Positions 8,121-54,132 of a DNA stretch of 64,000 bases are shown here, one piece after another. This DNA is from an uncultured Gemmatimonadaceae bacterium. GTDB lineage: Bacteria; Gemmatimonadota; Gemmatimonadetes; Gemmatimonadales; Gemmatimonadaceae. Position 1 is the first letter of the stretch; each line of letters starts with the position of its first letter. Below the pieces are notes generated by a model. The model was given only the letters and a program-made list of their open reading frames with translations, was not told the origin of the DNA and searched no databases. Position numbers and translations under genes: made by a program. The stretch covers positions 224,001 through 288,000 of the forward strand of contig CAVUDW010000002.1 in NCBI GenBank assembly GCA_963740355.1. The letters are read 5' to 3'.

Positions 8121-8177
8121 GTACAGCGCGCGCGGTTTCACCGCGCCGTCGATCATCCTTTTCCGCTGAGTGTCGCC

Positions 8178-10821: not shown

Positions 10822-10865
10822 GTTGACGCATAAAGGCTCAGTTCGGCGAGGTCAACGGGACGGTC

Positions 10866-10922: not shown

Positions 10923-11036
10923 ACGTTGGTATTACAAGGATCTAAGCTTTAGACATCGGGGTACCTGCGGCGACTATCGCCGTGTCCGTTACCGACCCCG
11001 TTTCAGTTCTGCCTCTTCACCATCGAGGATCGACTT

Positions 11037-11420: not shown

Positions 11421-11451
11421 TGTAAACCGCGGCACAGTTCGCCGGTGTATC

Positions 11452-11494
11452 ATCCGCTCGGAGCGACCCGTCGCTCCGAGCGGATTGTCTTTTC
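11452..11494 (+). terminator. Intrinsic terminator after the DUF3597 gene
   Basis: Perfect 16-bp inverted repeat ATCCGCTCGGAGCGAC / GTCGCTCCGAGCGGAT (11452-11485) followed by TGTCTTTTC. Confidence 0.75.
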
Positions 11495-11512
11495 TCCCCT
11501 CTGCTGCTCTTG

Positions 11513-13423: not shown

Positions 13424-13432
13424 AGGGTGACG

Positions 13433-17903: not shown

Positions 17904-17941
17904 CGTCTCACTGATTCACCTTTCTGTCCACGCGTTGCCGC

Positions 17942-23500: not shown

Positions 23501-23662
23501 CGACCGCTGGCCAGCGTCGTCATCGGCGGGCTGGTGACGTCCACGGCACTCACCCTGTTCGTGCTGCCACTGCTCTACCGTGCGCTTGGCCTGTGGCGCG
23601 AGAAGAAGGTGCCACAAGCCCGCCGTGCGCCGGCCGTCGCGGCCTCGCCGCTGACGACCTGA
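20526..23662 (+). CDS. czcA: CzcA/CusA-family heavy-metal RND transporter, split by two +1 frameshifts (~20859 and ~21240)
   Basis: DAFPDLT, APEEVEQLVTYPLE, SLGALDFGLIVDGAIVMVEN, EFMPKLDEG and RLRPVIMTA lie in three consecutive ORFs. Removing one base at each junction restores QQRLAEAK and QPSEILQV. Confidence 0.88.
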
Positions 23663-25405: not shown

Positions 25406-26619
25406 TGGCAGGTGTGACACCAGGAATTCAGTTCGATGGTGTGTGGAAGAAGTTCCGGCGCGGGGAAGTGCACGACTCGTTGCGCGACCTCATTCCAGCG
25501 CTCGCGCGCCGCATGGTCGGTGGCGGCCGCACCGCACCGGAGCTCGCCCGCGATGAATTCTGGGCGCTGCATGATGTGTCGTTTCGCGTTGAACCGGGGC
25601 AGACGCTCGGCGTGATCGGCCACAACGGCGCCGGCAAGTCCACGATCCTGAAGATTCTCACGCGCATCCTCCGGCCGTCGAAAGGCGCCTATGTGGTGCG
25701 CGGTCGCATCGGCGCACTGATCGAGGTGGCAGCGGGATTCCATCCCGATCTCACCGGTCGCGAGAACATCTTCCTGCAGGGCGCGATCATGGGCATGGGG
25801 CGCACGCAGACCCAGCGCAAGCTGGACGAGATCATCGCGTTCTCCGAGATCGAGCAGTTCATCGACACGCCGGTGAAGCGCTACTCGTCGGGCATGAATG
25901 CGCGGCTTGGGTTCTCGGTCGCGGCGCATCTCGATCCGGACGTGCTGATCATCGACGAAGTGCTCGCCGTCGGTGACTACGCGTTCCAGCGCAAGGCGTT
26001 CGGGCGCATCCGAGAGCTCGCTGGCAGCGGCATGCCGGTGGTCGTCGTATCACACCAACTGGATCGGATCGCCGAGCTGTGCACCGATGCCATCCTGTTG
26101 TCACACGGCACGATGGTGGCACAGGGCACGCCGGCCGACGTGATCGGAGCGTACATGCGCGGCGATGGCATGACGGGGAAGCAACTGGCCGACGATTCGC
26201 CCGTGTCTCTCACCTCGGCCGAACTGCTGGATGGCAACGAGGTCCGTTCTGGTGGCGCCATTCGGATCCGGGTAAGTGGGCAGACGCTCGGTCCCATCGG
26301 GCAGCATGTGGAGCCTGTCGGTGTGATCGTGCGCAGCGCGCAGACCGGTGAGATCATCTACGCCACCGGCAGTTCGATTCATAACCTCGACTTTGGCCGC
26401 GGCTCGTTCACGCTCGATGTCGAGTTGCAGATGAACGTGCAGCCCGGCATCTACCTCGCCGATATCGGTGTCTGGGATCGCGCCGACGAAAAGCAGCTGG
26501 CTGCTGGCCCGAGCCTGAACATTCGTGTGACAGAAGGCAGCCTGTTCCTCGGCCCGATCAACCTCAACGGCAGCATGGAAATGTTGCAGGCAGAGGCCCG
26601 CGTGAGGCTCGAGGGGTGA
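25405..26619 (+). CDS. wzt: Glycan export ABC ATPase with C-terminal Wzt_C-like domain (Wzt)
   Basis: FWALHDVSF, GHNGAGKST, GFHPDLTGREN, YSSGM, IIDEVLAVGD, plus an ~150-aa beta-rich C-terminal domain; the true start is the TGATG overlap at 25405. Confidence 0.92.
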   Translation: MAGVTPGIQFDGVWKKFRRGEVHDSLRDLIPALARRMVGGGRTAPELARDEFWALHDVSFRVEPGQTLGVIGHNGAGKSTILKILTRILRPSKGAYVVRGRIGALIEVAAGFHPDLTGRENIFLQGAIMGMGRTQTQRKLDEIIAFSEIEQFIDTPVKRYSSGMNARLGFSVAAHLDPDVLIIDEVLAVGDYAFQRKAFGRIRELAGSGMPVVVVSHQLDRIAELCTDAILLSHGTMVAQGTPADVIGAYMRGDGMTGKQLADDSPVSLTSAELLDGNEVRSGGAIRIRVSGQTLGPIGQHVEPVGVIVRSAQTGEIIYATGSSIHNLDFGRGSFTLDVELQMNVQPGIYLADIGVWDRADEKQLAAGPSLNIRVTEGSLFLGPINLNGSMEMLQAEARVRLEG

Positions 26620-27365
26620 TCGCCGTGCCGTCGGTTGCTCCGGCGGACGGTGTCACTGTCACCCTGCTCCGTCTGCCCGAGGTGCCCGCGACCGCTGACT
26701 TCGCCCTGCTCTCGACGGTCGAGCGCGAGCGGGCAGCGCGCTTTCAGTTCGAGCGCGATCAGGCGTCGTTCGTCACCACGCGCGCCGCATTGCGCCGCCT
26801 GCTGGGCGCCGCCATTGGATGCGAGCCCGCACAGGTCCGGATTGGCGTCGGCGAATACGACCGACCGATGCTCGCGCCGGACCACGCGGCTTCGCTGGAC
26901 TTCAATGTCTCGCATTCCGGCCGTTTGGCTGCCATCGCGCTCTCGTCGGCGGTCCGCGTTGGCGTCGATGTCGAATGGCATGCGCGCAAGCGGTCACTGC
27001 GCGAACTGGTGCCGCAGGTGATGGGGCGCGCCGAGCGTGAACTACTCGATGGCCTGGAAGACCCTGCACTCTTCGAGCGCGCGTTTTACGCCTGCTGGAC
27101 GCGAAAGGAAGCCATCGTGAAAGGCATCGGTGTCGGTATTTCCCACCCGCTGACATCGATCGACGTTCCTGTCGTGCCCGCTGACAATGTCGTGATCGTC
27201 GACGGTACGCCGCCATCGCCGTGGTACTTGGTGACTGACGAGCCGATCGCGGGCTACACCGTATCGGTCGCGCTCGCTGGAACGAGTGGTCTGGTCAGAA
27301 TTTCCCTGTTCGAAAACACCGCGTGTGCCGAGCTCGGCGAAGAATCGGGTCGTGATGCTGTCTGA
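26616..27365 (+). CDS. Sfp-type 4'-phosphopantetheinyl transferase
   Basis: FNVSHSG, VGVDVE, WTRKEAIVKG; GTGA overlap with wzt. Confidence 0.93.
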   Translation: MIAVPSVAPADGVTVTLLRLPEVPATADFALLSTVERERAARFQFERDQASFVTTRAALRRLLGAAIGCEPAQVRIGVGEYDRPMLAPDHAASLDFNVSHSGRLAAIALSSAVRVGVDVEWHARKRSLRELVPQVMGRAERELLDGLEDPALFERAFYACWTRKEAIVKGIGVGISHPLTSIDVPVVPADNVVIVDGTPPSPWYLVTDEPIAGYTVSVALAGTSGLVRISLFENTACAELGEESGRDAV

Positions 27366-27550: not shown

Positions 27551-30500
27551 GTGAACGTTGCCGAACTGCTGTCGAGTGTAGCCAACACCGGCGTTGAACT
27601 GTGGTTCGAGGGCTCACGCCTTCGTTTCAGGGGTCCGCGGGGCGCGCTCACAGGTGAGCAGCGTGCGGCGCTGTCGTCGAATCGCGCGGCCGTTGTCGAG
27701 CACCTGCGCGCGGTCGCCTCGGAGCAGCTCCACTCGTTCCCGCTGTCGTACAATCAGCGTGCGCTCTGGTTCATCCACCAGGAAGCGCCGACGAATGTGG
27801 CGTACCATGTCGCCCAAGGCATTCGCATCACGTCGGTGGTCCAGCGTGACGCGGTGCGTGAGGCATTGCAGGGAGTGTCGGACCGGCATCCCATGCTGCG
27901 GACGACCTACGCCCTCTCGGACGAGGGCCAGCTGCTGCAGCAGACGCGGGGCGCGGTGGATGTGGCCTTCGATTGCGTCGATGCCACCGGCAGCACCGAG
28001 GACGAGCTGCGCGCACTGGTGGATGCCGACTACGCGCGTCCCTTCGATCTCGAAGACGGTCCGGTGTTCCGTTGCACGCTGTTCTCGCGCGCTGAGGCCG
28101 ACCATGTCCTGGTCATCTACATGCACCACATCGCGGGCGACGCCTGGTCGCTGATGATGGTGCTGGACGATTTCCAGAAGTTGTACGCGGAAGCCTGCGG
28201 ACAGCCGACTTCGCTGCCGGCACGCGTGGAGACGGCGTACGAGTCGTTCGTGACGTGGCAGGAGTCGTGGCTGGCCAGCGACGATGGACAGCGGACCGGC
28301 GCCGCCTGGCAGGCCGTGCTGGCAGCCCCTCGTGCCCAGGTCGAGCTGCCGCCAGACCGGGCGCGCCCGGAACGCAAGACATTTCGCGGGGCGACGATCT
28401 CGTTTTCGCTGGAGGTCGAGACCGTGACCCGGCTGCGACAGGTGGCGCGCGAGCAGCATACCACCCTGTTCGTCGTGTTGCTCGCCGGCTACGTGGCGAT
28501 GCTGCATCGACTCACCGGTGAGACCGACGTGATCGTCGGCACGCCAACATTTGGTCGTACCGATAGTGCGTACTCCCGTGTGGTCGGGCACTTCGTGAAT
28601 CCTGTGCCGCTGCGGACACGCGTCGAATCGACCATCAGCTTCGCGGAACTGGTGGCGCGCGTCGGTCGCACGGTGCGAGCCGCTCTCGATGGACAGGAAT
28701 ATCCGTTCCAGCTGATCGTGCAGCATGCGCATGTGGTGCGCGATCCCAGCAGGTCGCCGCTGTTCGAGGCCTTCTTCGGATTGCTGGCGTTCGATCAGGT
28801 GCGGCATGGTGCCGATCCCGTTCCGCCGGCCGATGGGCCGCGCGATTTCGGTGGCCTGCGCGCCGAGCCGTATTCGCTTCGACAGCAGGAAGGCCAGTTC
28901 GATCTCTCGTTGCAGCTGAGCGAGCATGACGGCGGGCTCGATGGCTGGCTGATTTTCAATCCGGACATTCATGATGCCGACACCATCCAGCAGGTGGCCG
29001 CTCACTACACCGCACTCCTGGGCGGCGCGCTGGTGAGCATGGAGTCAACCGTTGCCGAGTTGCCGCCGCACGCCGATCGTCTGGGTGCCGATCACACGTC
29101 GGCGCACGCGGGGCCGCCGGCGCACGTGCAGCAATTGCTCGATGAACTGGCCGCGCGCGACGTGCGCCTGACGCTCGACGGGGAGAAGCTCAAGGTCAAC
29201 GCGCCGGTGGGCGCGCTGGACGACAGCCTGAAGGCACGCCTGTCACAGGCGAAGGCTGAGATCATCACGGCGCTGCGGGCCGCACCCGAGCCCCGTTCGG
29301 TGTTGCGGCGTGTGCCACGCACGGCGCCGCTGCCGATCTCGTATGCCCAGCAGCGCCTCTGGTTTCTCGACCGCATGGATCCGGGGAACTCGCATTACAA
29401 CATCTCGCTGCCGCTGCGGATCACCGGGCCGCTTGACGTTGCGGTGATGACGCAGGTGCTGGATGCGATTCCGCATCGCCACGAGGCGCTCCGGATCCGC
29501 ATCCGTGACATCGACGGCAACCCGCGCGCTGAATTGATGGAGTCGGTGGGCAGTGTGGTGCGGCTGGTGGACATCAGCGGCCTTGCGCCCGAGGCGCGTG
29601 CGGCCGAGTCGCATCGCCTGCTGCTGCAACAGATGGTCGTGCCTTTCGATCTCGCGACCGGTCCCCTGATCTCGTGCCTGCTCGTGCGTCACTCGGACGA
29701 CGAGTTCGTGCTGATGATCAGCATGCACCACATCGCGTCCGACGGCTGGTCGTTGAGCGTGGTCGTCGGCGAAATCTGCGCGGCGTATGAGGCGGCGATG
29801 GCCGGCCTGCCGTCACCGCTCGCGCCGCTGGAGGTGCAGTACGTGGACTTCGCCGCCTGGCAGCGCGAGCAGATGAATTCCGGCATGCTGGTGCAGCAGC
29901 TGGGTTATTGGCAGCGGGAGCTGGCTGGGGCACCGGTGCTGCTGGAACTGCCGACGGACCGTCCACGCCCCGCGGTGCAGACCTACCGCGGCACCCGCCG
30001 GAAGTACCGGATGGAGCCGGAACTGCTGGCTGGCCTCAAGGCCGTCAGCCGCGCCAGCGACGCCACACTCTACATGACGTTGCTGGCCGGGTGGCAGGTG
30101 CTGCTGCATCGCTATTCGGGGCAGGACGACATCGTGGTCGGCTCGCCGATGGCGAACCGTGATGACCCGGCGCTCGAGCCGCTGGTCGGCTGCTTCGTGA
30201 ACAACGTGGTGATGCGTGGCCGTCTGGAGGGTAACCCCACCTTCCGCGAGTTTCTCGGTCGCACGGCGACGACGGTCCTCGGCGCATTCGATCATCGTGA
30301 GTTGCCGTTCGATCGGCTCGTCGAAGGGCTGCGGCCGGAGCGGAGTACGAGCCACGCGCCGGTGTTTCAGGTGCTCTTCACGCTGCAGTCGTTCCCGGTG
30401 GACAACCGACACCCGGCGGGCCTGCATCTGGAATTGCTGAACATCGAAGACGACGAGCGCGGAACCGCCCGTTTCGACCTCACACTCGAAATGGACGAGC

Positions 30501-32518
30501 ACGAGGGCGGCCTGCGGATGTTCTACGAATACGCCACCGACCTCTTCGACGAGTCGACGGTGGCGCGGATGCACGGGCAGTATCTGGCCTTGCTGGCCGG
30601 GATCGTGGAGTCACTCGATGTGCGGGTGACCGACATCCCGATCCTCACCGCAGCGGACGAACGGACCCTGCTCGACGAGGTGAACGCCACCGCGTTCGAG
30701 CACGATCGATCGGTCTGCGTGCACGAGATGGTGCGGGCGATGGCCATCGCCACGCCGGATGCGGTGGCGGTGCAGGCACCCGACGAGACGCTGACCTACG
30801 GCCAGCTCGAGCGGCGCTCGAACCAGATGGCGCAGCTGCTTCGCGAACGTGGCGTGGGCGATGGTGCGCTGGTGGGCGTCTGCCTGGACCGGATCGCGGA
30901 TCTTCCGGTGGCGCTGTTGGCGGTCCACAAGGCTGGCGCAGCCTACGTGCCGGTGGATCCGGCGCATCCGGCGGAACGGCTGGTCTACACACTGACGGAC
31001 GCGAAGGTCTCGTGCGTGATCACGGAGGAGCGCTTCGCTGGTCTGGTGGAAGCAGCGCAGGCTCCACTGTTGCTTGTTGATGCGGATGCTGGCGCGATTG
31101 TGGCGCAGTCAACGCAGCCCCCGCAGACGAATGTGCGACCGGACGATCTCGCCTACGTGATCTACACCTCCGGCTCCACCGGACGGCCCAAGGGGGTCGA
31201 GGTCGAGCATCGGAACGTGGTGAATTTCCTCCGCTGCATGCAGCGCGAGCCGGGCTTCTCGCGCGACGACGTCGTGCTGGCCGTGACCACCCCGTCCTTC
31301 GACATCGCGGGCCTCGAGATCTTTCTGCCACTCGTGAGCGGGGCTCGCACGGTGATCGCGTCCCGCGGCGACGTGCTGGATGGTGAGCGGCTGATCGCCC
31401 TCGCCAACGAGTGCCACGCCACCGTGATGCAGGCCACCCCGGCGACCTGGCGGCTGATGATCGATGCGGGGTGGACCGGCAAGCAGGACCTGCGCGTGCT
31501 ATGTGGTGGCGAAGCGATGCCGCGCGACCTCGCGCGAGAACTGCTCACGCGCACCAACGTCATCTGGAACATGTACGGGCCGACCGAAACCACGATCTGG
31601 TCGACGACGCATCGCGTCACCGACGCCAGTCAGGAAATCCCCATCGGTCACCCCATCGGGAATACGACGGTCTACGTGCTCGATGCCGCCGGCCGGCCGG
31701 CACCCGTCGGCGTTGCTGGCGAGCTCTGCATTGGCGGTGAAGGTGTGGCCCGTGGCTACCGCGACCGCCCCGAACTCACCGCCGAGAAATTCGTCTCAGT
31801 TTCCCTGGCCGGACGCCCCGCCGAACGGGTCTATCGCACCGGCGACGTGGTTCGCCTCCGCAGCGATTTGACACTCGAGTTCGTCGGTCGACGCGACCAT
31901 CAGGTGAAGGTCCGCGGCTACCGTATCGAACTGGGTGAGATCGAATCGGTGCTGGTCGAGGACACAACCGTCAAGCGCGCGGTCGTGATCGTGCGCGAAG
32001 ACTCGCCGGGCGATCAGCGGTTGGTGGCGTACGTCGTCCCGGCCGAGGGCGCGGCCGTGGCCTCGGAAGGGCTGCGTGCCCTGTTGCGCTCGCGGCTGCC
32101 TGAATACATGGTGCCTGCGACGATCGTCCCGTTGGCCGAGCTGCCGCTCACGCCGAACGGCAAGATCGATCGGAAGGCGCTCCCGGCGCCGGCCGCCGTG
32201 CGACCCGCTGCCGCGACCGCGTCTGACACCGTCATGACCGATCCGCAGCGTCGTGTTGCCGCCATCTGGCGCGACGTGCTCCGCATCGAGCACCTCGGCG
32301 TCGACGACAACTTCTTCGACCTGGGCGGACACTCCCTCCTCGTCGTGAAGGTGCATGCGGCCCTCCGACGTGAGTTCCAGAAGGAGCTCACCCTCGTTGA
32401 CCTCTTTCAGCATACGACCATTGCTGCGCAAGCCACTCTCGTTTCGTCCGAGGCCACCGATCGTGGCGCGTCCGTCCAGAGGGCGCGCGCACGCGCGGCT
32501 CGGCAAGTCCATGTCTGA
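27551..32518 (+). CDS. NRPS1: TubC_N-C-TubC_N-C-A(Gly)-PCP
   Basis: C motifs HHIAGD and HHIASDG; A motifs YTSGSTGRPKG, YGPTE, YRTGD, NGKIDR; PCP GGHSL; two docking domains. Confidence 0.93.
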   Translation: MNVAELLSSVANTGVELWFEGSRLRFRGPRGALTGEQRAALSSNRAAVVEHLRAVASEQLHSFPLSYNQRALWFIHQEAPTNVAYHVAQGIRITSVVQRDAVREALQGVSDRHPMLRTTYALSDEGQLLQQTRGAVDVAFDCVDATGSTEDELRALVDADYARPFDLEDGPVFRCTLFSRAEADHVLVIYMHHIAGDAWSLMMVLDDFQKLYAEACGQPTSLPARVETAYESFVTWQESWLASDDGQRTGAAWQAVLAAPRAQVELPPDRARPERKTFRGATISFSLEVETVTRLRQVAREQHTTLFVVLLAGYVAMLHRLTGETDVIVGTPTFGRTDSAYSRVVGHFVNPVPLRTRVESTISFAELVARVGRTVRAALDGQEYPFQLIVQHAHVVRDPSRSPLFEAFFGLLAFDQVRHGADPVPPADGPRDFGGLRAEPYSLRQQEGQFDLSLQLSEHDGGLDGWLIFNPDIHDADTIQQVAAHYTALLGGALVSMESTVAELPPHADRLGADHTSAHAGPPAHVQQLLDELAARDVRLTLDGEKLKVNAPVGALDDSLKARLSQAKAEIITALRAAPEPRSVLRRVPRTAPLPISYAQQRLWFLDRMDPGNSHYNISLPLRITGPLDVAVMTQVLDAIPHRHEALRIRIRDIDGNPRAELMESVGSVVRLVDISGLAPEARAAESHRLLLQQMVVPFDLATGPLISCLLVRHSDDEFVLMISMHHIASDGWSLSVVVGEICAAYEAAMAGLPSPLAPLEVQYVDFAAWQREQMNSGMLVQQLGYWQRELAGAPVLLELPTDRPRPAVQTYRGTRRKYRMEPELLAGLKAVSRASDATLYMTLLAGWQVLLHRYSGQDDIVVGSPMANRDDPALEPLVGCFVNNVVMRGRLEGNPTFREFLGRTATTVLGAFDHRELPFDRLVEGLRPERSTSHAPVFQVLFTLQSFPVDNRHPAGLHLELLNIEDDERGTARFDLTLEMDEHEGGLRMFYEYATDLFDESTVARMHGQYLALLAGIVESLDVRVTDIPILTAADERTLLDEVNATAFEHDRSVCVHEMVRAMAIATPDAVAVQAPDETLTYGQLERRSNQMAQLLRERGVGDGALVGVCLDRIADLPVALLAVHKAGAAYVPVDPAHPAERLVYTLTDAKVSCVITEERFAGLVEAAQAPLLLVDADAGAIVAQSTQPPQTNVRPDDLAYVIYTSGSTGRPKGVEVEHRNVVNFLRCMQREPGFSRDDVVLAVTTPSFDIAGLEIFLPLVSGARTVIASRGDVLDGERLIALANECHATVMQATPATWRLMIDAGWTGKQDLRVLCGGEAMPRDLARELLTRTNVIWNMYGPTETTIWSTTHRVTDASQEIPIGHPIGNTTVYVLDAAGRPAPVGVAGELCIGGEGVARGYRDRPELTAEKFVSVSLAGRPAERVYRTGDVVRLRSDLTLEFVGRRDHQVKVRGYRIELGEIESVLVEDTTVKRAVVIVREDSPGDQRLVAYVVPAEGAAVASEGLRALLRSRLPEYMVPATIVPLAELPLTPNGKIDRKALPAPAAVRPAAATASDTVMTDPQRRVAAIWRDVLRIEHLGVDDNFFDLGGHSLLVVKVHAALRREFQKELTLVDLFQHTTIAAQATLVSSEATDRGASVQRARARAARQVHV

Positions 32519-32551: not shown

Positions 32552-35500
32552 GTGAGCACCGACCACGTCGCGTCTCGCCGCGCAATTGCCATCGTCGGCA
32601 TGAGCGGTCGCTTTCCGGGCGCCCACTCGTTGCAGCAGTTCTGGCAGAATCTGCGCGACGGCGTGGAGTCGCTGGAAACGTTCACCGACGATGAGCTGGA
32701 GCAGGCCGGTGTCACCGCCGCGATGCGTGCGCTCCCGGGATGGGTGTCGCGTGGCACCGTGCTGCAGGACGCCGACCACTTCGATGCGGGCTTCTTCGGC
32801 TACTCGCCGCGCGAGGCCCAGATCATCGACCCACAGCAGCGGCTCTTCCTCGAGTGCGCGTGGGAAGCGATGGAGCACGCCGGCTACGCCGGTGAGCCGG
32901 ACGGACTGACGGTCGCGATCTACGCTGGATCGAGCATGAACACCTACGTCTACAGTCAGTTGCTTCCGAACAAGGAGCTGTTGGCGTCGGTGGGTGGCTA
33001 CCAGGTGATGTTGGGTAACGACAAGGACTTTCTCACCACGCGTGCGTCGTACAAGCTCGACCTGCATGGCCCCAGCATGGCGATCCAGACGGCCTGCTCG
33101 ACGTCACTGGTGGCGGTACAGGTCGCGTGCCAGTCGTTGCTGCGCCGCGAGTGCGACATGGCGCTGGCCGGCGGGGTCTCGATCACCTTCCCGCAGCGCA
33201 CCGGCTATCAGTTCCAGGAGGGGATGATCTTCTCTCCGGATGGGAGCTGCCGACCCTTCGATGCGGATGCGAAGGGAACACGCTCAGGCGCCGGCGCCGG
33301 GATCGTGGTACTGAAGCGGCTCGAGGATGCGCTCGCCGACAACGACACGATTCACGCCGTGATCCTTGGCGCAGCGATCAACAACGATGGCGCTGGCAAG
33401 GCGGGCTACACGGCGCCGAGCATCGATGGTCAGGTGGAAGCGATCGCCACGGCGCAGGCGCTTGCCGGCGTGGCACCGGAGACCATCTCGTACATCGAGG
33501 CACACGGCACGGCCACGCCGCTTGGCGATCCGATCGAGATCGCCGCGCTGACCCGCGTGTTCCGCGAGTCGACGGATGCGACGGGGTTCTGTACGATCGG
33601 ATCGCTGAAGGCGAACCTCGGTCATCTCGATGCGGCGGCCGGTGTGGCTGGGCTGATCAAGACCGTGCTGGCATTGCGCAACCGTGAGCTCCCACCGCAG
33701 CTCAACTTCCGCGCGCCCAATCCGCAGTTGCAGCTCGAGGCCTCGCCGTTTCGTGTGGCCACGACGCCGGAAGCCTGGGTCGCCGGCGCCACGCCGCGGC
33801 GCGCCGGGGTGAGCTCGTTCGGCATCGGCGGCACGAACGCCCATGTCGTGCTCGAAGAAGCTCCGGCCATGCTGCCGAGCGCCACGTCGCGTGACCGCCA
33901 CCTGCTGGTCGTCTCGGCAAAGTCGGCGGAGGCACTGGAACGGGCGACGACCAATCTGGTCGATGCCCTGCGTCGAAATGATGCGCCCGCGCTCGCTGAC
34001 GTCGCGAACACCCTCCAGATCGGCCGCCGCGTCTTTGCACACCGCCGGAGTGTCGTCGCGCGCGACGCGGCCGAGGCGATCGCGTTGCTCGAGGCACCCG
34101 ATAGGGCACCGGTGGCAACCGGCGTACACGACGGTGCGTCACGGCCGGTTGCATTCCTGTTCAGCGGCCAGGGCAGCCAGCATGCGGGGATGTGCGCCGA
34201 GCTGTATCGCACCGAGCGCGTCTACCGCGCGGCCGTCGATCGGTGCGCCGAACTGCTGCAGCCGCATTTCGGGCGCGACGTCCGGGAGTTGCTGCGCGAT
34301 GGCAGCGATGGTGAGCTGAGCGAGACGTACGTCGCGCAGCCGGTGCTGTTCACCACCGAGTATGCACTGGCCGTGCTCTGGATGTCGTGGGGCGTGCAGC
34401 CGGCGGCGATGCTTGGCCACAGCATCGGGGAGTATGTCGCGGCGCACCTGGCCGGTGTGCTGTCGCTCGAGGATGCGCTGTTGCTGGTGTCGGCTCGTGG
34501 GCGGTTGATGCAGGGCATGGCGGCGGGCGACATGCTCGCCGTGCGACTGGCGCCAGCTGACCTGCGCGCCCGCTTGCGTGATGGCGTCGAGATCGCGGCG
34601 GTGAATGCCCCCGCGCTCTGCACCGTGTCAGGCACGCCGCACGCCATCGACGCATTGGCGGCAGAACTCGAGCTGGCCGGCATCGAGCATCGGGCGCTGC
34701 ACACCTCGCACGCCTTCCATTCGGCGATGATGGAGCCGGCGCTGGCGCCATTCCGTGAAATCGTGTCGCGTGTGACGCTGTCACCACCGCGGCGCCCCTA
34801 TGTCTCGAACGTCACCGGCACCTGGATTCGTCCCGAACAGGCGACCTCTCCCGACTATTGGGCGGCACACCTGCGGAACGCAGTGTTGTTCGCCGATGGT
34901 GTGAAGACGCTGAGCACCGATCCGACCATGCAGTTGCTGGAAGTGGGACCGGGCAATGCACTCACGTCGCTGGCGCGGCTCACCCTTGGGCGCGACGATG
35001 CCACGCGCGTGATGGCCTCGCTGCCCCATCCGCGCGAGAAGCGCAGTGAGCTCGAGACCATGCTCAGTGCCGCCGGTCGCTTGTGGGCGAATGGCGTGGC
35101 GATTGACTGGTCTGGGTTGCACGCCGACGAATCGCTGCATCGTGTGCCACTGCCGACTTATCCCTTCGAGCGGAAGCGGCATTGGGTCGATGCCCCGAAG
35201 GGCGACGCGACGGCCGCAGCGGGCAGTGTGTCGATGCGACGCGAGCAGCTCGACGATTGGTTCTACACGCCGACCTGGACGCGCGCGCCGTTGGCGCGCA
35301 CGCGGCTCTCGGCATTGGACGGCACCTGGCTCATCTTCGGCCGCGGCGATGCGTTGGAGCAGGCGGTGGCGGACGGAATGCGCGAGCGTCAGGTCTCCGT
35401 CATTCATGTGCACGAGGGCCCGGAGTTCGCGGTCGCAGGTGCCGACCGGTTCACGGTGCGCGCCACCGATGCCAGGGATCACGGCGCGCTCCTCAAGGAG

Positions 35501-37126
35501 TTGAGTCAGCGCGGTGTGATCGTGCGGGGGGTGCTGCATCTCTGGAACGCCGGCGCGCACGTTACCGTCTCCCACGATCGCGATTGCGCGCTGCATGCGC
35601 TGGCCGCGCTCGGTCGCGCGCTGCTGGTCGAGTCGCCATCGGCGCAGGTCCGCCTCGTGGTCGCCACGACCGACGCGCAGAGTGCGCTCGGTGAACCGGT
35701 GGCGAACCCGGATCGGGCGTTGGTGAGCGGACCGGTGCTGGTGCTCCCGCTGGAGCACGAGGGGGTGCGCGCCAGCACCATCGATCTCGACCCCGTGCTG
35801 GCAGACGGCTGGGCGTCGAGTGCGGCGGCGGCGTTGCTTGATGAGGCGGCGAGCGACGATGCCGACCAGATGGTGGCGCATCGGGTGGGCCAGCGGTGGG
35901 CGCGGCGCTTCGTGAGCGGGTCGTTGCCGGCGGTTGCATCGAAGGCGCTGCCGCTCACCGAGCGTGGTGTCTACCTCGTGACGGGTGGCTTGGGCGGCAT
36001 CGGCGTCACGCTGGCGGAGTGGCTCGCGGCCCAGGTGTCCGCACGCCTGGTGTTGACGTCACGCACGGCGATGCCCCGTCGCGAGGAGTGGGACGGCTGG
36101 GTGTCGGAACATGGCGCGGACGACGCGACGACCCGGCGCATCCTCGACATTCGCAGGATCGAGGCGGCCGGTGGCGAGGTGGCGGTGCTGGTGGCCGATG
36201 TCGCCGACGAGGCCGAGATGCGGACATCCCTGGCAACGGTGGAAAATTCGTGGGGTCCGGTGCGCGGTGTGGTGCACGCAGCAGGTGTCTCTGGTGATGG
36301 GTTGCTGGCGCTATCAACTGCTGATGATGCCCGCGTCGCGATGGACGCGAAGGTCGCAGGGCTCGATTGCCTGCTGGCGCTGCTCGGCGATCGGACGCTG
36401 GACTTCGTCCTCCTCTGCAGCTCGATCAATGCCGTGGGCGGTGTGGCCGGCACCTACGCCTACACCGCCGCCAACGCCTACCTCGATGCCTTCGCCATCT
36501 CGAGCCGGCGGCCCGCAGGGTGGTCGACGCTCTCGATCGCCTGGGATGCCTGGCGCGAGGTCGGGATGGCCACGAAGGTCGTCGTCCCCGCCGCGATGCG
36601 AGCGGCCCGTGCCGCGTACGTCGCCGCCGGCATCCCTCCGCGTGATGGTGCCGAGGCGTTCGGGCGCGCGCTCGCCAGCGGCCTGCCGCTGCATGTCGTG
36701 TCGCCATACGACGTGGAGCGCCTGCTCGAGGGTCGCCGCCGCGCCCATGTGCGCCCCGATCGCGAGGCCGGGACAGAGGCCGCAGCGCCGGCCGCCGAGT
36801 CCGTACCCAGCGAGCGGGTTCGGTCGTCTTCGCATGCTGCCCCAGAGGGCGACATCGAGGAGCGACTGGTATCGGTCTGGGAGGACCTGTTGGGTGTGAC
36901 CACCGTAGGCGTTCACGACAATTTCTTCGAGCTCGGCGGCCACTCGCTCCTGGCCACACGCGTGCTGGCTCGGATCGATGGCTTCTTCGGTGTGCGGCTT
37001 CCGTTGCGCGCCGTGTTTGAGGCGCCCACGATCCGACAGCTGGGCCAGTTGATCGCCGCCGAGGCGCTCGCGACTGCCACCGAAGCCGCTGCGCCTGCCG
37101 GCGATCGTGAGGAGTTCGAGCTGTGA
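32552..37126 (+). CDS. PKS1: KS(hybrid type)-AT(malonyl)-KR-ACP
   Basis: NDKD and IQTACSTS (KS type that follows an NRPS), HGTAT, GHSIG/HAFH, GGLGGIG...YTAAN, GGHSL; C-terminal REEFEL. Confidence 0.93.
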   Translation: MSTDHVASRRAIAIVGMSGRFPGAHSLQQFWQNLRDGVESLETFTDDELEQAGVTAAMRALPGWVSRGTVLQDADHFDAGFFGYSPREAQIIDPQQRLFLECAWEAMEHAGYAGEPDGLTVAIYAGSSMNTYVYSQLLPNKELLASVGGYQVMLGNDKDFLTTRASYKLDLHGPSMAIQTACSTSLVAVQVACQSLLRRECDMALAGGVSITFPQRTGYQFQEGMIFSPDGSCRPFDADAKGTRSGAGAGIVVLKRLEDALADNDTIHAVILGAAINNDGAGKAGYTAPSIDGQVEAIATAQALAGVAPETISYIEAHGTATPLGDPIEIAALTRVFRESTDATGFCTIGSLKANLGHLDAAAGVAGLIKTVLALRNRELPPQLNFRAPNPQLQLEASPFRVATTPEAWVAGATPRRAGVSSFGIGGTNAHVVLEEAPAMLPSATSRDRHLLVVSAKSAEALERATTNLVDALRRNDAPALADVANTLQIGRRVFAHRRSVVARDAAEAIALLEAPDRAPVATGVHDGASRPVAFLFSGQGSQHAGMCAELYRTERVYRAAVDRCAELLQPHFGRDVRELLRDGSDGELSETYVAQPVLFTTEYALAVLWMSWGVQPAAMLGHSIGEYVAAHLAGVLSLEDALLLVSARGRLMQGMAAGDMLAVRLAPADLRARLRDGVEIAAVNAPALCTVSGTPHAIDALAAELELAGIEHRALHTSHAFHSAMMEPALAPFREIVSRVTLSPPRRPYVSNVTGTWIRPEQATSPDYWAAHLRNAVLFADGVKTLSTDPTMQLLEVGPGNALTSLARLTLGRDDATRVMASLPHPREKRSELETMLSAAGRLWANGVAIDWSGLHADESLHRVPLPTYPFERKRHWVDAPKGDATAAAGSVSMRREQLDDWFYTPTWTRAPLARTRLSALDGTWLIFGRGDALEQAVADGMRERQVSVIHVHEGPEFAVAGADRFTVRATDARDHGALLKELSQRGVIVRGVLHLWNAGAHVTVSHDRDCALHALAALGRALLVESPSAQVRLVVATTDAQSALGEPVANPDRALVSGPVLVLPLEHEGVRASTIDLDPVLADGWASSAAAALLDEAASDDADQMVAHRVGQRWARRFVSGSLPAVASKALPLTERGVYLVTGGLGGIGVTLAEWLAAQVSARLVLTSRTAMPRREEWDGWVSEHGADDATTRRILDIRRIEAAGGEVAVLVADVADEAEMRTSLATVENSWGPVRGVVHAAGVSGDGLLALSTADDARVAMDAKVAGLDCLLALLGDRTLDFVLLCSSINAVGGVAGTYAYTAANAYLDAFAISSRRPAGWSTLSIAWDAWREVGMATKVVVPAAMRAARAAYVAAGIPPRDGAEAFGRALASGLPLHVVSPYDVERLLEGRRRAHVRPDREAGTEAAAPAAESVPSERVRSSSHAAPEGDIEERLVSVWEDLLGVTTVGVHDNFFELGGHSLLATRVLARIDGFFGVRLPLRAVFEAPTIRQLGQLIAAEALATATEAAAPAGDREEFEL

Positions 37127-40100
37127 GCAACGCGACCTTCGCACTGCTCGATCAGCTTCGTGCACTCGACGTGCATGTCCGCGCCGAGGACGGTCGGCTT
37201 CGCATCAGCGCGCCGAAGGGCAGCCTGACTCCCGCGCTCGAAGCCGCATTGGTGGCAAGCAAGGCGGAGCTGCTGAAGGTGTTGACGGCCGCCCCTACGG
37301 CGGCGGCCACCTCGACGCCGGTGCTCTCGCCGGTGCCACGGATCGGGACGCTCCGGCTTTCGTACCTGCAGGAACGGCTCTGGGTGCTGGACCAGCTGCA
37401 GCCCGGGCACACGGCGTACAACCTCGCCACGGCGTCGAGCGTGATCGATCCGCTCGACATTCCGCGACTGGTGGCTGCGTCGCGGCGCCTCATCGCGCGG
37501 CATGAGATCCTGCATTCGCACTTCGTGCTCGATGGGTCGTCGCCCGTGGTGCGGGTCGCGCCCGCCGACTCTACCAGGATCGACGTGCGTGACCTGCGTG
37601 GGCTGGCGGTTGAGGAGCAGCAACGCGTGGTGTCGGCCGCCGCGAGTGTCGCAGCGCATGCACCGTTCGATCTCGCGCACGAATCGCCCGTTCGGATCGA
37701 GATCCTCCAGACCGGTGACACCGCCGGAGCATTCGTCTTCTCCGCGCACCACATCGCCGTCGACTCATGGTCGATGGGGCTATTGATGCAGGAGCTGACG
37801 CGAGAGTACGAATCGCTGGCTGCTGGGCAGTCGCCGCCACGTGAGCCCGAGCCGCTGCAGTACATCGATTTTGCGCAGTGGCAACGTGCGGTGATGGAAG
37901 GCCCGGGGGCGCAGGCGCGACTCAAGTTCTGGACCGATCGTCTCGCGGGGCTGCCGCAGATGAGCACCTTCCCGACGGATCATCCACGACCGATCGATGT
38001 CTCGGGCGTTGGCATGGCGTACGATTTCGCCTGGTCGCCGGAGCTCTATGATGGCGTGAAGGCCATGGCGCGCGACCTCGATGCGACGCTGTACATGATC
38101 CTGCTGGCGGCCATGGCGTCCGTCTTGTCGCGCAATACGGGACAGACCGACATTGCGCTCGGTAGCCCGCTCGGAACCCGCGAGCGGTCGGAACTGGAGG
38201 CCATGATCGGACCGATCGTCAATCCGCTGGTGATGCGATTCGATCTTTCCGATGATCCGCCGTTCGCGACGCTGGTGAAGCGTGCGCGCGAGGCCGTGCT
38301 GGACGGACACGCGAATCAGGACGTTCCGTTCGAGACGCTGGTGCAGCAGCTCAATCCGGATCGCTCGCTGGGACACGCACCGCTCTTTCAGGTGGCGGTG
38401 GTGCAGCACAGCGCGCCCAACGCCGGTGGCACCGCCATCACGGGCGGCGGTGCGATCTACGACGTGACGATGTTTGCGACCGAGCATCATGGCATGCTGA
38501 CTGGCGCGCTCGAGTATCGCTCGGACCTGTACGATCCGGCGACCATCGCGCGCGTCGATTCGCAGATCCAGTCGTTGCTGATGGCAGCGGCACGCGACCA
38601 CCAGCGTCGCGTGTCGGAGCTCCCCTTGCTGACGCCTGCTGAGTCAGCGCGGCTGCTGCACGAGTTCAATCCCGCGCCGGCCGACGTGGATCGGACGACG
38701 GTCGTCGCGCAGTTCGCCCGGACGGCCACCGCGCACGGCGCGCGCGGTGCGGTGCTGGCCTCGGACGGAACGCTGACGTACGCGGAGCTGGATCGCCGCT
38801 CCAACCTCGTCGCTCATGCCTTGCGCGCCGCAGGCGCAGGCCGTGGCATGTACGTCGCACTCGCCACCGATCGATCGAGCGCCATGGTCGTCGGTGCGCT
38901 CGGGATCCTGAAGGCTGGCGCGGCCTATGTGCCTGTGGATGTGGCGTACCCCGCCGATCGTGTGGCCTTCATGCTGCGCGACAGTGGTGTGCAGCACATC
39001 GTGACGACCGAGGAGGCGCTGCAGTCGATTCGCGACCTCCAGCTCCCGTCGGCGGTGATCAAGGTCGATGAGTTGGTCAGCTCCGACGCGGTGGCACCGA
39101 CCATTGCAGTGGCCGATGGCCCCACGCCCGAAGACGTGGCCTACCTCATCTACACGTCGGGCTCCACCGGGACACCGAAGGGTGTGATGGTGCCGCATCG
39201 CGCCATGAGCAACTTCCTCGGCGCGATGCGTGAACGGCCCGGCATCTCGCCGGATGACGGCGTGATGTGCGTGACGTCGATGTCGTTCGACATCTCGGTG
39301 CTGGAAGTGTTCCTGCCCCTGGTCAGTGGTGCCCGCACCATCATCGCGGCGCGCGAAGATGCCAGCGATGGCGCGCGCCTGGCGGAATTGATCCGACGGA
39401 GCGAAGCGACCATGGTCCAGTCCACGCCGTCGGGGTGGCGACTGTTGATGAACGCGCGGTGGTCGGGCGATGAACGTGTGACCGCGATCGCGGGCGGCGA
39501 GCCAATGCCTGAGGACCTCACCCGCTGGCTCACGGAGCGCGTCCGGCGGGTGTGGAACGGCTACGGTCCGACCGAGACCACGGTCTATTCGACGATGGCG
39601 CTCCTGACCGGCAGCGACATGATCACGATCGGAACGCCGGTCGCCAACACCCGCGTCTACGTACTCGACGCCGGCGGGATGCTGGCACCGATTGGTGCGC
39701 CGGGCGAGATCGTCATTGGCGGCGACGGGGTCACGCTGGGTTACCGCAACCGTGCCGACCTGACAGCTGAAAAGTTCGTGCCCGACCCCTTCCAGCCTGG
39801 TCAGACGGTGTACCGCACCGGCGACATCGGGCGGTGGAGGTCCGACGGCCGCCTGGAGCACCTCGGCCGGATCGACGGGCAGGTCAAGGTGCGCGGATAT
39901 CGCATCGAAACCGGTGAGATCGAGGCCGCGCTGTCGACGCACGAGATGGTTCGCACCGCGGTCGTCGGTGTCCGTCACGCGTCGGCCGACGATCCGCGCC
40001 TGGTGGCGTGGGTCCAGCTGCATGAAGAGGACTCGTGCACCGCCAGCGAGCTGCGGCGGCACCTCCGCCAGATGCTGCCGGAATTCATGATTCCGTCGAT

Positions 40101-40452
40101 GGTGGTGCTGGTCGAGTCATTCGTCCTCACGCCCAACGCCAAGATCGACAGCAAGGCGCTGCCGGAACCGTTTGCACACGCGAAGTTCGCGCCGCATGAG
40201 TTCGTTGCGCCGGCGACCGACTCGGAGAAGATGATTGCCGAGGTCTGGACCCGTTTGCTTGGGGTACCACATGTGGGTGCTTCCGACAGCTTTTTCGAGC
40301 TTGGCGGCCATTCGCTGCTCGCGATGCGTGCAGCGAGCGAAATTTCGGAACGGAGCGGTCGAGTGATCGAACCGCGCCTGCTCTTCTTCCGCACCCTTGG
40401 CCAGCTGGCCGAAGCGTGTGATGCCACGATCCCAGTTGCCGGACGCACGTGA
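37123..40452 (+). CDS. NRPS2: TubC_N-C-A-PCP, no thioesterase
   Basis: N-terminal docking domain, HHIAVD, YTSGSTGTPKG, YGPTE, YRTGD, GGHSL. Confidence 0.93.
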   Translation: MSNATFALLDQLRALDVHVRAEDGRLRISAPKGSLTPALEAALVASKAELLKVLTAAPTAAATSTPVLSPVPRIGTLRLSYLQERLWVLDQLQPGHTAYNLATASSVIDPLDIPRLVAASRRLIARHEILHSHFVLDGSSPVVRVAPADSTRIDVRDLRGLAVEEQQRVVSAAASVAAHAPFDLAHESPVRIEILQTGDTAGAFVFSAHHIAVDSWSMGLLMQELTREYESLAAGQSPPREPEPLQYIDFAQWQRAVMEGPGAQARLKFWTDRLAGLPQMSTFPTDHPRPIDVSGVGMAYDFAWSPELYDGVKAMARDLDATLYMILLAAMASVLSRNTGQTDIALGSPLGTRERSELEAMIGPIVNPLVMRFDLSDDPPFATLVKRAREAVLDGHANQDVPFETLVQQLNPDRSLGHAPLFQVAVVQHSAPNAGGTAITGGGAIYDVTMFATEHHGMLTGALEYRSDLYDPATIARVDSQIQSLLMAAARDHQRRVSELPLLTPAESARLLHEFNPAPADVDRTTVVAQFARTATAHGARGAVLASDGTLTYAELDRRSNLVAHALRAAGAGRGMYVALATDRSSAMVVGALGILKAGAAYVPVDVAYPADRVAFMLRDSGVQHIVTTEEALQSIRDLQLPSAVIKVDELVSSDAVAPTIAVADGPTPEDVAYLIYTSGSTGTPKGVMVPHRAMSNFLGAMRERPGISPDDGVMCVTSMSFDISVLEVFLPLVSGARTIIAAREDASDGARLAELIRRSEATMVQSTPSGWRLLMNARWSGDERVTAIAGGEPMPEDLTRWLTERVRRVWNGYGPTETTVYSTMALLTGSDMITIGTPVANTRVYVLDAGGMLAPIGAPGEIVIGGDGVTLGYRNRADLTAEKFVPDPFQPGQTVYRTGDIGRWRSDGRLEHLGRIDGQVKVRGYRIETGEIEAALSTHEMVRTAVVGVRHASADDPRLVAWVQLHEEDSCTASELRRHLRQMLPEFMIPSMVVLVESFVLTPNAKIDSKALPEPFAHAKFAPHEFVAPATDSEKMIAEVWTRLLGVPHVGASDSFFELGGHSLLAMRAASEISERSGRVIEPRLLFFRTLGQLAEACDATIPVAGRT

Positions 40453-42181: not shown

Positions 42182-42954
42182 GCGCCGTGGCTTCGCCACC
42201 GGCACTGGTGCGCCTCGGCCATCGCCCTGAACCGCGCCGCCGCCTCTTCTGCTTGCCGTTTGCAGGCGGTGGTGCCGCGGCGTATGGCTTGTGGTGGCGT
42301 TCGCTGCCGGCAGACATCGAGGTGCAGGCCGCGTTGTTGCCGGGTCGCGAATCGCGCATCCGCGAGCAGCCGCTGGACACCATCGCGGCGATGGTGGACG
42401 CTGTCTTGCCATCGATCCAAGCGAAGCTGGACCTGCCCTATGCCATCTTCGGGCACAGCATGGGTGGGCTGCTGGCATTCGAGATTGCGGCGGCGCTGGA
42501 GCGCGCCGGTGGTCCCGCGCCAGAGCACCTTTTCGTGTCAGCGCGGCGTTCACCGGATGAGCCGGACCCTGCGACGCCGATGCATCGGCTGCCGGAGCTC
42601 GAGTTTCTCGACACCATGAACGATCGCTACGGCGCCGTGCCTGAAGCGGTGCGCGCCGAGCGTGAGTTGCTCGAACTGTTGCTGCCAGTGCTGCGGGCAG
42701 ACACCCACGCCATCGAGACCTACGAGCCGTCGCGCGAGCGCCGCGTGCGCTGCAAGGTCCATGTCTTCGGCGGACTCGAAGATCGATATCCAACGCCAGC
42801 GCAGTTGCCGAACTGGCAGCGTGTGGCCGAGCAGCCGATTCGAGTTCGCGTTTTTGCTGGTGATCATTTCTATCTCACGGCCCAGCGCGACGCGCTGACG
42901 GCGGACATTGCTGCCACATGGCAGACCGCTCCAGTAGAGGCGGCACGGGCATGA
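42178..42954 (+). CDS. Type II (editing) thioesterase
   Basis: LFCLPFAGGG, LPGRE, FGHSMG, GDHFY; start at the ATGA overlap (42178). Confidence 0.92.
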   Translation: MSAVASPPALVRLGHRPEPRRRLFCLPFAGGGAAAYGLWWRSLPADIEVQAALLPGRESRIREQPLDTIAAMVDAVLPSIQAKLDLPYAIFGHSMGGLLAFEIAAALERAGGPAPEHLFVSARRSPDEPDPATPMHRLPELEFLDTMNDRYGAVPEAVRAERELLELLLPVLRADTHAIETYEPSRERRVRCKVHVFGGLEDRYPTPAQLPNWQRVAEQPIRVRVFAGDHFYLTAQRDALTADIAATWQTAPVEAARA

Positions 42955-47552: not shown

Positions 47553-47558
47553 GTCGTC

Positions 47559-53500: not shown

Positions 53501-54132
53501 GTGGGCGCGGATTGCACTGGATCGATCCCGAGCGCGCCTTCGCGCAGATGGCGCGGCTGCTCGCAGAGCACGCCACGCAGGTGATTGCGATGCCCATCAA
53601 CTGGGCACAGTTCCTCGAAAGACTGCCCGCAGGCGAGGATCGCAGCTTCTTCCGCGCGGTCGAGCCGATGGTGCGTCGAGTGCCGACGGCACCGCTGGCA
53701 GCCACCGGCCGCGCGGTGTCGGTGGTGGAGAGCTGGCGCGCAGCACCGGCGTCAGCCTGGCGCGACCTCGCCATTGCGCACGTCCTCGAGCGAACGCGCC
53801 AGGTGCTGGGGGTAGACGACCTGTTCGTGATCCCGGAAGGGGTGGCGCTGAAGGATGTGGGACTCGATTCGCTGATGGCGGTCGAGTTGCGCAACGTGCT
53901 GACGCGGTCGCTGGGCAAGTCGCTGCCGGCGACCCTCCTCTTCGACTACCCGTCGCTCGATGCACTGAGTGGCTACCTGCTGCGCACCTTCGAGCTGTTA
54001 CCACCGGTGGTGCCCGCCGTCGTGAGCGTGCCAACCAACGCCACCTCCGAGATCGAAACACTCACCGACGAGGAAGCAGAAGCGTTGCTGCTGGCCGAAC
54101 TGAACTCCCTGGACTCCCAAGGCCGCCGATGA
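47559..54132 (+). CDS. PKS3: KS-AT-DH-ER-KR-ACP, one +1 frameshift at ~49899
   Basis: DTACSS, GHSIG/YAFH in the first [32 protein letters not shown] and ACP GLDSL in the second. Deleting one base restores [11 protein letters not shown]. Confidence 0.9.

Follow-up and report, generated by a model that had tools for sequence, protein, structure and literature searches.

What is the role of an internal docking domain that separates two condensation domains in a protein with a single carrier? The question is raised by a nonribosomal peptide synthetase (NRPS) gene in a stretch of 64,000 nucleotides (nt) from an uncultured Gemmatimonadaceae bacterium (contig CAVUDW010000002.1, positions 224,001 to 288,000; hereafter the window). 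The open reading frame (ORF) at 27551..32518 on the + strand begins with GTG and encodes 1655 amino acids (aa) in the layout dock(d1)-C1-dock(d2)-C2-A-T, in which the docks are beta-hairpin docking domains and C, A and T are condensation, adenylation and carrier domains. An earlier interpretation based on the DNA letters, hereafter the sequence-only reading, had proposed that a stand-alone C protein had fused to a module and that the second dock captures a second acyl donor. We argue below that the first proposal is very probably right and the second improbable. In its place we tentatively offer, at rather less than an even chance for the explanation as a whole, a fusion protein in which C1 works on a glycyl carrier (Gly-S-T) and C2 carries out a second condensation through re-entry.

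Scanned as a whole with Pfam, the protein contained two stretches of TubC_N, two of Condensation (620.8 bits in total), AMP-binding at residues 1067-1403, AMP-binding_C at 1463-1538 and PP-binding at 1568-1630. There is one A domain and one carrier domain in the ORF, as had been proposed, and both C domains have the intact HHxxxD motif ascribed to them (HHIAGD and HHIASD). No in-frame stop lies near 29100. C2 is canonically paired with its own downstream A-T; C1 is not, as d2 and C2 come next. The features of the gene are as follows.

27557..27709, + strand: d1, N-terminal beta-hairpin dock (residues 3-53; class 1, ELWFEG-RLRFR type; TubC_N).
27728..29065, + strand: C1, distal condensation domain (residues ~60-505; Pfam Condensation; HHIAGD at residues 192-197, nt 28124-28141).
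29066..29125, + strand: linker between C1 and d2 (residues 506-525; variable length, poor conservation).
29126..29278, + strand: d2, internal beta-hairpin dock (residues 526-576; class 2, D[VI]RL-LDG-KL[KR]VNAP type; TubC_N).
29330..30673, + strand: C2, proximal condensation domain (residues 594-1041; Pfam Condensation; HHIASD at residues 726-731, nt 29726-29743).
30749..32164, + strand: A domain (residues 1067-1538; AMP-binding and AMP-binding_C; glycine-like code DILQLGMIW).
32252..32440, + strand: T, carrier domain (residues 1568-1630; PP-binding; GGHSL).
32468..32515, + strand: basic C-terminal tail QRARARAARQVHV (from comparison of the C-termini of family members).

Is the internal segment a docking domain at all? 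Against the Pfam gathering cut-off of 26 bits for TubC_N (PF18563), the N-terminal 70 aa scanned alone scored 49.6 bits (E 4e-13) and an internal segment of 90 aa scanned alone scored 57.4 bits (E 1.6e-15), each over profile positions 1-51 of 52. Both docks noticed in the letters, at the N-terminus (residues 3-53) and internally at ~29125-29280 (residues 526-576, between the two C domains), are thus recovered by the profile. An AlphaFold2 model of residues 514-595, built from a 54-row alignment, has the order helix-strand-strand-helix-helix (H11-22, E26-30, E33-37, H45-53, H55-64), with a predicted local confidence (pLDDT) of ~80 in the dock domain. Its best Foldseek match in the Protein Data Bank (PDB) was the EpoB docking bidomain 5T7Z (E 5e-4; root-mean-square deviation 1.3 A over 51 columns), and further matches were TubC 2JUG, AerJ bHD 8AQQ, Bamb_5915 6CGO and the Kj12 docks. 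Collectively, these data indicate that d2 is predicted to adopt the beta-hairpin docking-domain fold. We considered whether d2-C2 might have arisen by internal duplication. However, d1-C1 and d2-C2 are just 32% identical, and d2-C2 is nearer to the dock-C portion of a second NRPS in the window, NRPS2 (35%).

To place the arrangement among its relatives, we drew on a homologue search with residues 1-700, in which 8000 candidates were scored and the best 120 of 1320 significant matches were kept. The family was defined as the fused members among the resulting 121 proteins (the query and the 120 listed matches), recognized with a hidden Markov model (HMM) for two docks. Of the 121, 62 have the same architecture, with a length of 1600-1700 aa and docks at the N-terminus and at ~510-540; identity to the query over residues 1-700 ranges from 36 to 93%. 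The few members with names come from metagenome-assembled genomes (MAGs) of Gemmatimonadaceae and Pseudomonadota, and the arrangement is kept in many soil bacteria. The linker at residues 506-525 has a mean column conservation of 0.30, and the segment that includes its flanks (~495-530) varies from 17 to 37 residues across the family. By comparison with these figures, both docks have a mean column conservation of 0.64, and d1 is conserved in 62/62 members. Basic residues are kept in each: in d2, K546 is K/R in 61/62 and K548 is K/R in 60/62; in d1, R23 is R/K in 58/62, R25 is R in 61/62 and R27 is R/K in 60/62. These charged residues were placed on the second strand from the AlphaFold2 model and by analogy with a review (PMC9113145). 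In the carrier domain, Ser1595 is kept in all 62 members. A scan of genomes for related loci with generic patterns (HHIA.D.W and a dock motif) brought up 78 loci, all of them ordinary NRPSs, and in no case did a single ORF contain two docks. In a search with the dock-C1 half, the matches were ranked by summed score and the best 150 were very large NRPSs (4000-7900 aa) with many C domains, which allowed no census of split and fused forms. Three proteins that at first resembled dock-C-dock-C without A-T (P0055, P0085, P0089) were rejected because their alignments run into unrelated sequence from within or just after C2; they are probably frame-shifted.

How did a dock come to lie inside a protein? 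Two relatives correspond to the first half alone. Residues 1-505 of the fused protein P0083 are matched at 77% identity by P0135 (510 aa; end ...DDREELFF) and at 85% identity by P0138 (522 aa; end ...NREEIVM). Both stop just past C1, where fused forms run into d2, and end in an REE-type tail followed by a stop codon. A FastTree phylogeny of 304 C domains places them within the clade of fused forms. The C-termini of three more distantly related dock-C proteins (P0141, P0142, P0143) read ...GDREEVQF or ...GEREELRF. In the window, the first codon of d2 is an in-frame GTG (29126-29128). Because split relatives end with REE-type tails at the end of C1, and because d2 begins at a would-be start codon, we conclude that the protein is very probably an end-to-end fusion of a dock-C subunit bearing an acidic tail with the dock-C-A-T glycine module onto which it docked, d2 being the former N-terminal dock of that module. 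The fusion put forward in the sequence-only reading is therefore supported by dock-C relatives and by the GTG at the start of d2, and of the two-gene homologues that it suggested looking for, the C1 half was found. These comparisons further suggest that the original ligand of d2 may have been the tail of the C1 subunit itself and not a carrier protein.

Several candidates were left out of this comparison. P0123 (519 aa) has an unrelated tail right after 'LPP', and P0146 and P0147, in which a ketoreductase (KR), an acyl carrier protein (ACP) and C1 are followed by the end of the protein, have uninformative tails; none was counted as a split form. A search with the d2-C2-A-T half found no protein of ~1130 aa with a d2-type dock at its start among the 120 matches listed, which were fused members and long NRPSs. 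The free-standing dock-C proteins P0134, P0137 and P0144 (~545 aa) share a different C-terminal extension, ...SRQDFERLIMELGR..., which is perhaps a helical docking element and not an acidic tail.

Relatives in other arrangements retain parts of the same plan. In the ACP-fused forms P0094 and P0100, a carrier of a polyketide synthase (PKS) is joined to C1 in place of d1, and d2-C2 is kept; in P0100 the fused PKS part also includes a KR and a methyltransferase. We were unable to identify a window PKS as the orthologue of this part, as the methyltransferase regions of two window modules match it about equally. In bimodular forms an A-T pair stands between C1 and d2. Its A code is DFWNIGMVH in P0066, P0070, P0071, P0072 and P0084, which is threonine-like by the Stachelhaus code, and glycine-like in P0053. 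The first C of the bimodular forms groups with C1 and the last with C2, and their complete C-termini (all except the truncated P0070) keep the basic tail. P0053, a metagenome protein of 2727 aa, has two glycine-like A domains and an extra C- or epimerization (E)-like domain between its first carrier and the internal dock; the motif of its last C is HEAVCD, in which the second His is replaced by Glu. P0060 is without d2 and keeps both C motifs. In the C-domain tree all C1 domains form one clade (SH-like support 100) and all C2 domains another (99), and the C1 clade also holds the first C of ordinary dock-C-A-T modules and PKS ACP-C fusions. A second tree, unrooted and computed from the domains common to 69 proteins (62 fused and 5 bimodular forms together with P0094 and P0060; P0070, P0099 and P0100 were omitted as truncated), places the bimodular forms inside the fused diversity at two places.

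Which of the two C domains does the work? In C1, H192, H193 and D197 are each invariant (62/62). In C2 the HH pair is intact in 56/62 and altered in six: PR in P0040 and P0043, HP in P0044 and P0064, and DH in P0056 and P0078. The second His of HHxxxD is catalytic. The DH variant keeps this residue and is also present in bimodular relatives in which C2 must work; the second His is truly missing in 4/62 (P0040, P0043, P0044, P0064), in two lineages. These four dead-C2 members keep 0.75-0.84 of the highly conserved columns of C2, compared to a family median of 0.95. The corresponding fractions are 0.91-0.98 for C1, 0.91-0.96 for A and 0.89-0.95 for d2, and for T they are 0.94-1.00 in three members, with a drop to 0.56 in P0064, which has an NRPS2-type carrier. 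Because C2 alone is relaxed in these lineages, C1 and the single A-T evidently suffice there, and C1 would accordingly be able to use Gly-S-T as acceptor. The A domain of the window protein has the code DILQLGMIW, and 62/62 members fit DILQ[LI]G[MVA][IV]W, a pattern read as glycine by the Stachelhaus code. We think it probable that C1 is the indispensable catalyst that couples the incoming chain to Gly-S-T. As T is the sole carrier in cis for C1, it must then reach the distal C domain, as the carrier does in the icosalide synthetase module with tandem C domains.

Outside the dead-C2 members, mean column conservation is 0.65 for C2 and 0.61 for C1. Across the family, in which C2 identity falls to 38%, highly conserved columns number 154/448 in C2 compared to 129/439 in C1. 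Because C2 is conserved at least as strongly as C1, it is likely, from these comparisons, to be a working catalyst in most members and to perform a second condensation. Its best solved matches are Txo2 (338.9 bits) and Txo1 (311.2 bits), with DhbF and TycC also found, all elongation C domains. For C1, a good match in the structural database was 8Z0Q ('special condensation domain'); a literature search on this PDB code gave no match.

The same data bear on the rival explanation that survives best, which we nevertheless regard as unlikely. It holds that C1 alone joins the polyketide to Gly-S-T, that C2 is a platform for the A domain and d2 a hinge holding C1, and that no second condensation takes place; this state would follow the loss of an A-T pair or the fusion itself. 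The invariance of the C1 motif fits such a scaffold, as does loss of the catalytic His of C2 in four members with C1 and A unrelaxed, and T unrelaxed in three of the four. So does the retention of d2 where C2 is dead. Moreover, bimodular relatives keep internal docks after a covalently attached carrier with no acidic tail before them, indicating that docks can outlive their first use. However, a structural domain would be expected to lose its catalytic His far more often than is seen with HH kept in 56 of 62 members, and C2 has more highly conserved columns than C1 in a family that has diverged this far. The DH variant, moreover, recurs in bimodular relatives in which C2 must work.

If C2 does catalyze a second condensation, which carrier supplies its donor? 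The neighboring genes in the window, all on the + strand, provide the candidates.

26616..27365, + strand: 4'-phosphopantetheinyl transferase, directly upstream of the NRPS (Pfam ACPS, AASDHPPT_N).
32552..37126, + strand: PKS1, with ketosynthase (KS), acyltransferase (AT), KR and carrier (Pfam; KS motif IQTACSTSLV; carrier resembling a peptidyl carrier protein, GGHSL).
37103-37123 (nt), + strand: C-terminal tail of PKS1, GDREEFEL (comparison of ORF ends).
37123..40452, + strand: NRPS2, dock-C-A-T (TubC_N 48.2 bits; dock at nt 37144-37284, class 2).
40449-41234 and 41231-42181, + strand: two alpha/beta hydrolases (Pfam Hydrolase_4).
42094-42954, + strand: free-standing thioesterase (Pfam Thioesterase).
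42918..64000, + strand: four more cis-AT PKS modules with helical PKS docking tails, the last running off the window (Pfam, termini).

The carrier of PKS1 was matched by the HMM for NRPS T domains. In a six-frame HMM scan of the 64-kb window, no further A domain or NRPS-type carrier was found besides those of the two NRPS genes and the PKS1 carrier. The sequence-only reading had suggested looking for two proteins with an acidic tail of the E-E-x-E-L-like type; a six-frame scan of the ORF ends in the window found such a tail on PKS1 only (...GDREEFEL).

We built separate HMMs from the 62 d1 and the 62 d2 docks and found that they separate the docks cleanly into two classes. All internal docks tested are of the d2 class, and the docks of the split forms and of locus L001 are of the d1 class. 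The dock of NRPS2 belongs to the d2 class (57.8 bits on the d2 HMM compared to 35.6 bits on the d1 HMM) and directly follows the PKS1 tail ...GDREEFEL. The REEFEL of this tail is of the same type as the REELFF and REEIVM of the split C1 subunits. In L001, by comparison, a d1-class dock directly follows a PKS ACP with the tail ...EVWEEGSL. The window therefore holds three docks, two of them of the d2 class, and one visible tail of the matching REE type. A complex prediction for d2-C2 (residues 520-1045, 54-row alignment) with the PKS1 carrier and tail scored 0.27 (mark, 0.32) and was used neither for nor against binding. Locus L001 itself (5190-14878, from a deltaproteobacterial MAG) contains a PKS with KS, AT, dehydratase, KR and ACP that overlaps the GTG start of a d1-class dock-C-A-T protein ending in a thioesterase; ~260 aa between the C and A domains of the latter are without domain assignment. 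The A code of NRPS2, DILQIGGVY, is near the glycine-like code, with three positions different. Its carrier ends in ...RLLFFRTLGQL and bears no docking tail; P0064, P0077 and P0081 end in like manner (P0079 and P0087 similarly).

From this layout we propose the following order of events. The d1-C1 pair would take a polyketide from the last upstream PKS carrier, a donor suggested because P0094 and P0100 have a PKS carrier (in P0100, KR-ACP) fused to C1; for the same reason we place the PKS modules before the NRPS in the assembly line. The four downstream PKS modules are the likely source of this polyketide. C1 would join the chain to Gly-S-T, the sole carrier in cis, and the chain would then pass to PKS1, whose KS motif IQTACSTSLV is of the kind characteristic of KS domains fed by an NRPS carrier. 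The PKS1 carrier would deliver to the NRPS2 dock through its GDREEFEL tail, and release after NRPS2 would fall to the hydrolases or the thioesterase, which are likely to be release or editing enzymes.

The second condensation, by C2, would take place on freshly reloaded Gly-S-T. Glycine has one amine and no side-chain nucleophile. Because glycine accepts a single acyl group and T must be free of the chain before it is reloaded, the PKS1 carrier becomes a candidate donor for C2; it is the only visible carrier that could keep the chain meanwhile, and the only one in the window with a tail matching the d2 class. The route would be one programmed re-entry, from the PKS1 carrier to d2 and C2, to Gly-T, back to PKS1 and on to NRPS2, giving two Gly-ketide units, with dead-C2 lineages working in a single pass; we regard this as possible, though doubtful. 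Slightly more doubtful still is the general form of the idea, in which the tandem dock-C is a built-in counter for one re-entry, the internal dock causes the NRPS-PKS pair to be used twice, and loss of the C2 His gives a shorter product.

Transfer to PKS1 may involve the C-terminus of the NRPS. A tail of the RARARAARQ type (QRARARAARQVHV in the window) is present at most of the 62 family C-termini, P0036, P0061 and P0064 being without it, and also on the bimodular relatives P0066, P0071, P0072, P0084 and P0053. It is probably an NRPS-to-PKS interface with the following PKS, and possibly an undescribed element of such interfaces. The KS of the PKS that it precedes has almost no N-terminal extension.

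Several points weigh against the fusion and re-entry explanation. The tree is an unrooted FastTree phylogeny only, and the direction of change, whether fusion, deletion or insertion, is one that we argue from the sequences. A gene with a d2-type dock next to P0135 or P0138 is a presumed partner, and in split forms the tail of C1 would compete for d2. In P0060 the C2 motif is intact although d2 is absent. The A-T-inserted forms (P0066, P0070, P0071, P0072, P0084, P0053) show that C1 is also able to use a carrier of its own. In dead-C2 members d2 is well kept (0.89-0.95), which fits a tether better than the recruitment of a donor for C2. The terminus of the last PKS, with which d1 presumably pairs, falls beyond the edge of the window. 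Re-entry itself is hypothetical, and the PKS1 tail may pair with the NRPS2 dock alone. Finally, the explanation assumes the glycine and threonine readings of the A codes and a catalytic role for the second His.

A further alternative, which we consider quite unlikely, supplies the carrier that C1 seems to lack. A separate A-T protein with an acidic tail would dock on d2 and act as acceptor for C1 and donor for C2, each domain then having one canonical use. Relatives have such an A-T in cis, threonine-like in P0066, P0070, P0071, P0072 and P0084 and glycine-like in P0053, and locus L027 has a free-standing A-T followed by a dock-C protein. Furthermore, the cluster leaves the window, so an A-T gene could lie past 64000. 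However, no free-standing A-T or extra carrier was found in the 37 kb of visible cluster, and in split relatives the likely ligand of d2 would be the tail of the C1 subunit. Moving an A-T out of the middle of the gene is also a less simple history than fusion or deletion. Moreover, a module acting in trans cannot explain the dead-C2 members, in which C1, A and T (that of P0064 excepted) are constrained. In L027 (7929-11563, from a Rhodoblastus MAG) the A-T protein has 691 aa and ends in ...ADERLLEGQI, and the dock-C protein has 520 aa and is without A-T or tail; the pair is enacyloxin-like and alphaproteobacterial and adjoins a methylmalonyl-CoA mutase.

Less probable again is a form of the sequence-only reading in which d1 and d2 receive two different upstream carriers, with branching, double acylation or two parallel product series as the outcome. 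For icosalide synthetase, tandem C domains that attach two acyl chains are described (PMC10510592). In the window, the docks fall into two sequence classes, each conserved and with its basic second-strand residues kept, and C2 is conserved as well. On the other hand, there is one acidic tail and not two, C2 matches elongation C domains and is not evidently of the lipo-initiation type, and split relatives indicate the C1 tail as the probable ligand of d2. Moreover, the glycine-like code in 62/62 members leaves one nucleophile, which excludes double acylation of the amino acid; two donors working in parallel would still be conceivable.

Frame breaks are present in the PKS genes of the window. 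Near nt 49,900 an AT domain is divided between two frames (ORFs 47559-50144 and 49495-54132). The last PKS (58544-64000) occupies at least four ORFs, and three frames share its methyltransferase region (62386-62979, 62984-63286, 63378-63506). These breaks reflect either errors of assembly or decay of the cluster; the gene at 27551-32518 is itself intact. A lost stop is a fair worry because of these breaks, but that two genes were joined in assembly by a lost stop or frame error near 29100, where the sequence-only reading had allowed for a stop, has next to no chance of being correct, because 61 other clusters from independent sources share the uninterrupted architecture, and P0002, the nearest relative among the matches listed (93% identical over residues 1-700 and 95% over the whole protein, by alignment), has substitutions at the junction with the reading frame open; the two-dock NRPS gene is real and intact.

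Housekeeping genes lie upstream of the cluster. Directly upstream is a resistance-nodulation-division (RND) pump set (15760-23662) with a two-component system, outer-membrane factor, membrane-fusion protein and RND pump, possibly for export or self-resistance. Its AcrB-like ORF (21278-23662) begins at profile position 252 of 1021, the first quarter being missing or in another frame. A membrane ORF matching ABC2 (24527-25405) overlaps an ATP-binding cassette (ABC) ATPase ORF (24682-26619) in a different frame. Near the start of the window are chemotaxis genes, CheA-like (1043-3388), CheR (4152-4982) and CheB (6423-7478), and a weak CheZ-like ORF (278-1006) below the Pfam cut-off.

Docks of the TubC_N type have been described and engineered as N-terminal devices that catch the tails of carrier proteins. 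What is new here is a conserved family, from at least 62 clusters, with a dock in mid-protein between two C domains; condensation-only subunits that, with a dock and a docking tail, are adaptors between a PKS and an NRPS module; and one carrier that evidently serves a distal C domain. Searches of openly licensed full text in PMC and bioRxiv brought to light neither a dock placed between two C domains nor a C subunit combining a dock with a tail. If C2 indeed runs a re-entry or a second entry, the protein would be a natural template for programming how often a module is used, or for joining a polyketide assembly line to a peptide module. On the conservative reading too, the split, fused, ACP-fused and A-T-inserted forms make up a natural series on the gain and loss of modules.

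How does this arrangement compare with systems that are already known? The review PMC9113145 places docks N-terminal to C, E, heterocyclization (Cy), thioesterase, methyltransferase, reductase and halogenase domains, and tails after carriers, oxidases and Cy domains; the word 'internal' is absent from it. The docks of TubC and EpoB are N-terminal, whereas d2, with the same Pfam model and the same predicted fold, lies at residues 526-576. In the FR-901375 line (PcdC/PcdK), according to PMC13324335, the dock is required and the tail dispensable, since the dock also binds the carrier directly. Because the tail is dispensable there, an internal dock without a cognate tail, like d2, can still work. 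PcdC/PcdK and their relatives (FR-901375, romidepsin) also bring a PKS carrier with a tail to a dock-C-A-T protein, with a single N-terminal dock and a single C domain.

C1 alone resembles the enacyloxin pair Bamb_5917/Bamb_5915, in which a beta-hairpin dock is fused to a C domain without its own A-T and recruitment is through a short tail. The dock-C units of the window match 6CGO (Bamb_5915), dock included, at 73-78 bits. Bamb_5915 reportedly hands its chain to a free small-molecule acceptor (PMC9113145) and is not known to bear a tail. By contrast, C1 in the window is fused to a full module, and its free-standing relatives bear a C-terminal docking tail. In rhabdopeptide NRPSs one tail serves several docks and modules are used iteratively, according to the same review (PMC9113145). 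Like Kj12A/B/C, which have more docks than tails, the window has three docks and one visible tail. However, the Kj12 docks are all N-terminal on single-module proteins, and neither an internal dock nor tandem C domains are present there. The tandem C domains themselves resemble those of module 3 of the icosalide synthetase of Burkholderia gladioli (C-C-A-T), where, likewise, two C domains precede one A-T. In that module (PMC10510592), a single downstream carrier serves both C domains, and the upstream chain is captured by the distal one. The proximal one is a lipo-initiating starter domain; serine is the amino acid used, and the hydroxyl of the newly attached acyl group receives the second acylation. 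Unlike the icosalide module, which has no dock between its C domains, the protein in the window has a glycine-like code, an elongation-like C2 and, for each C domain, a dock of its own.

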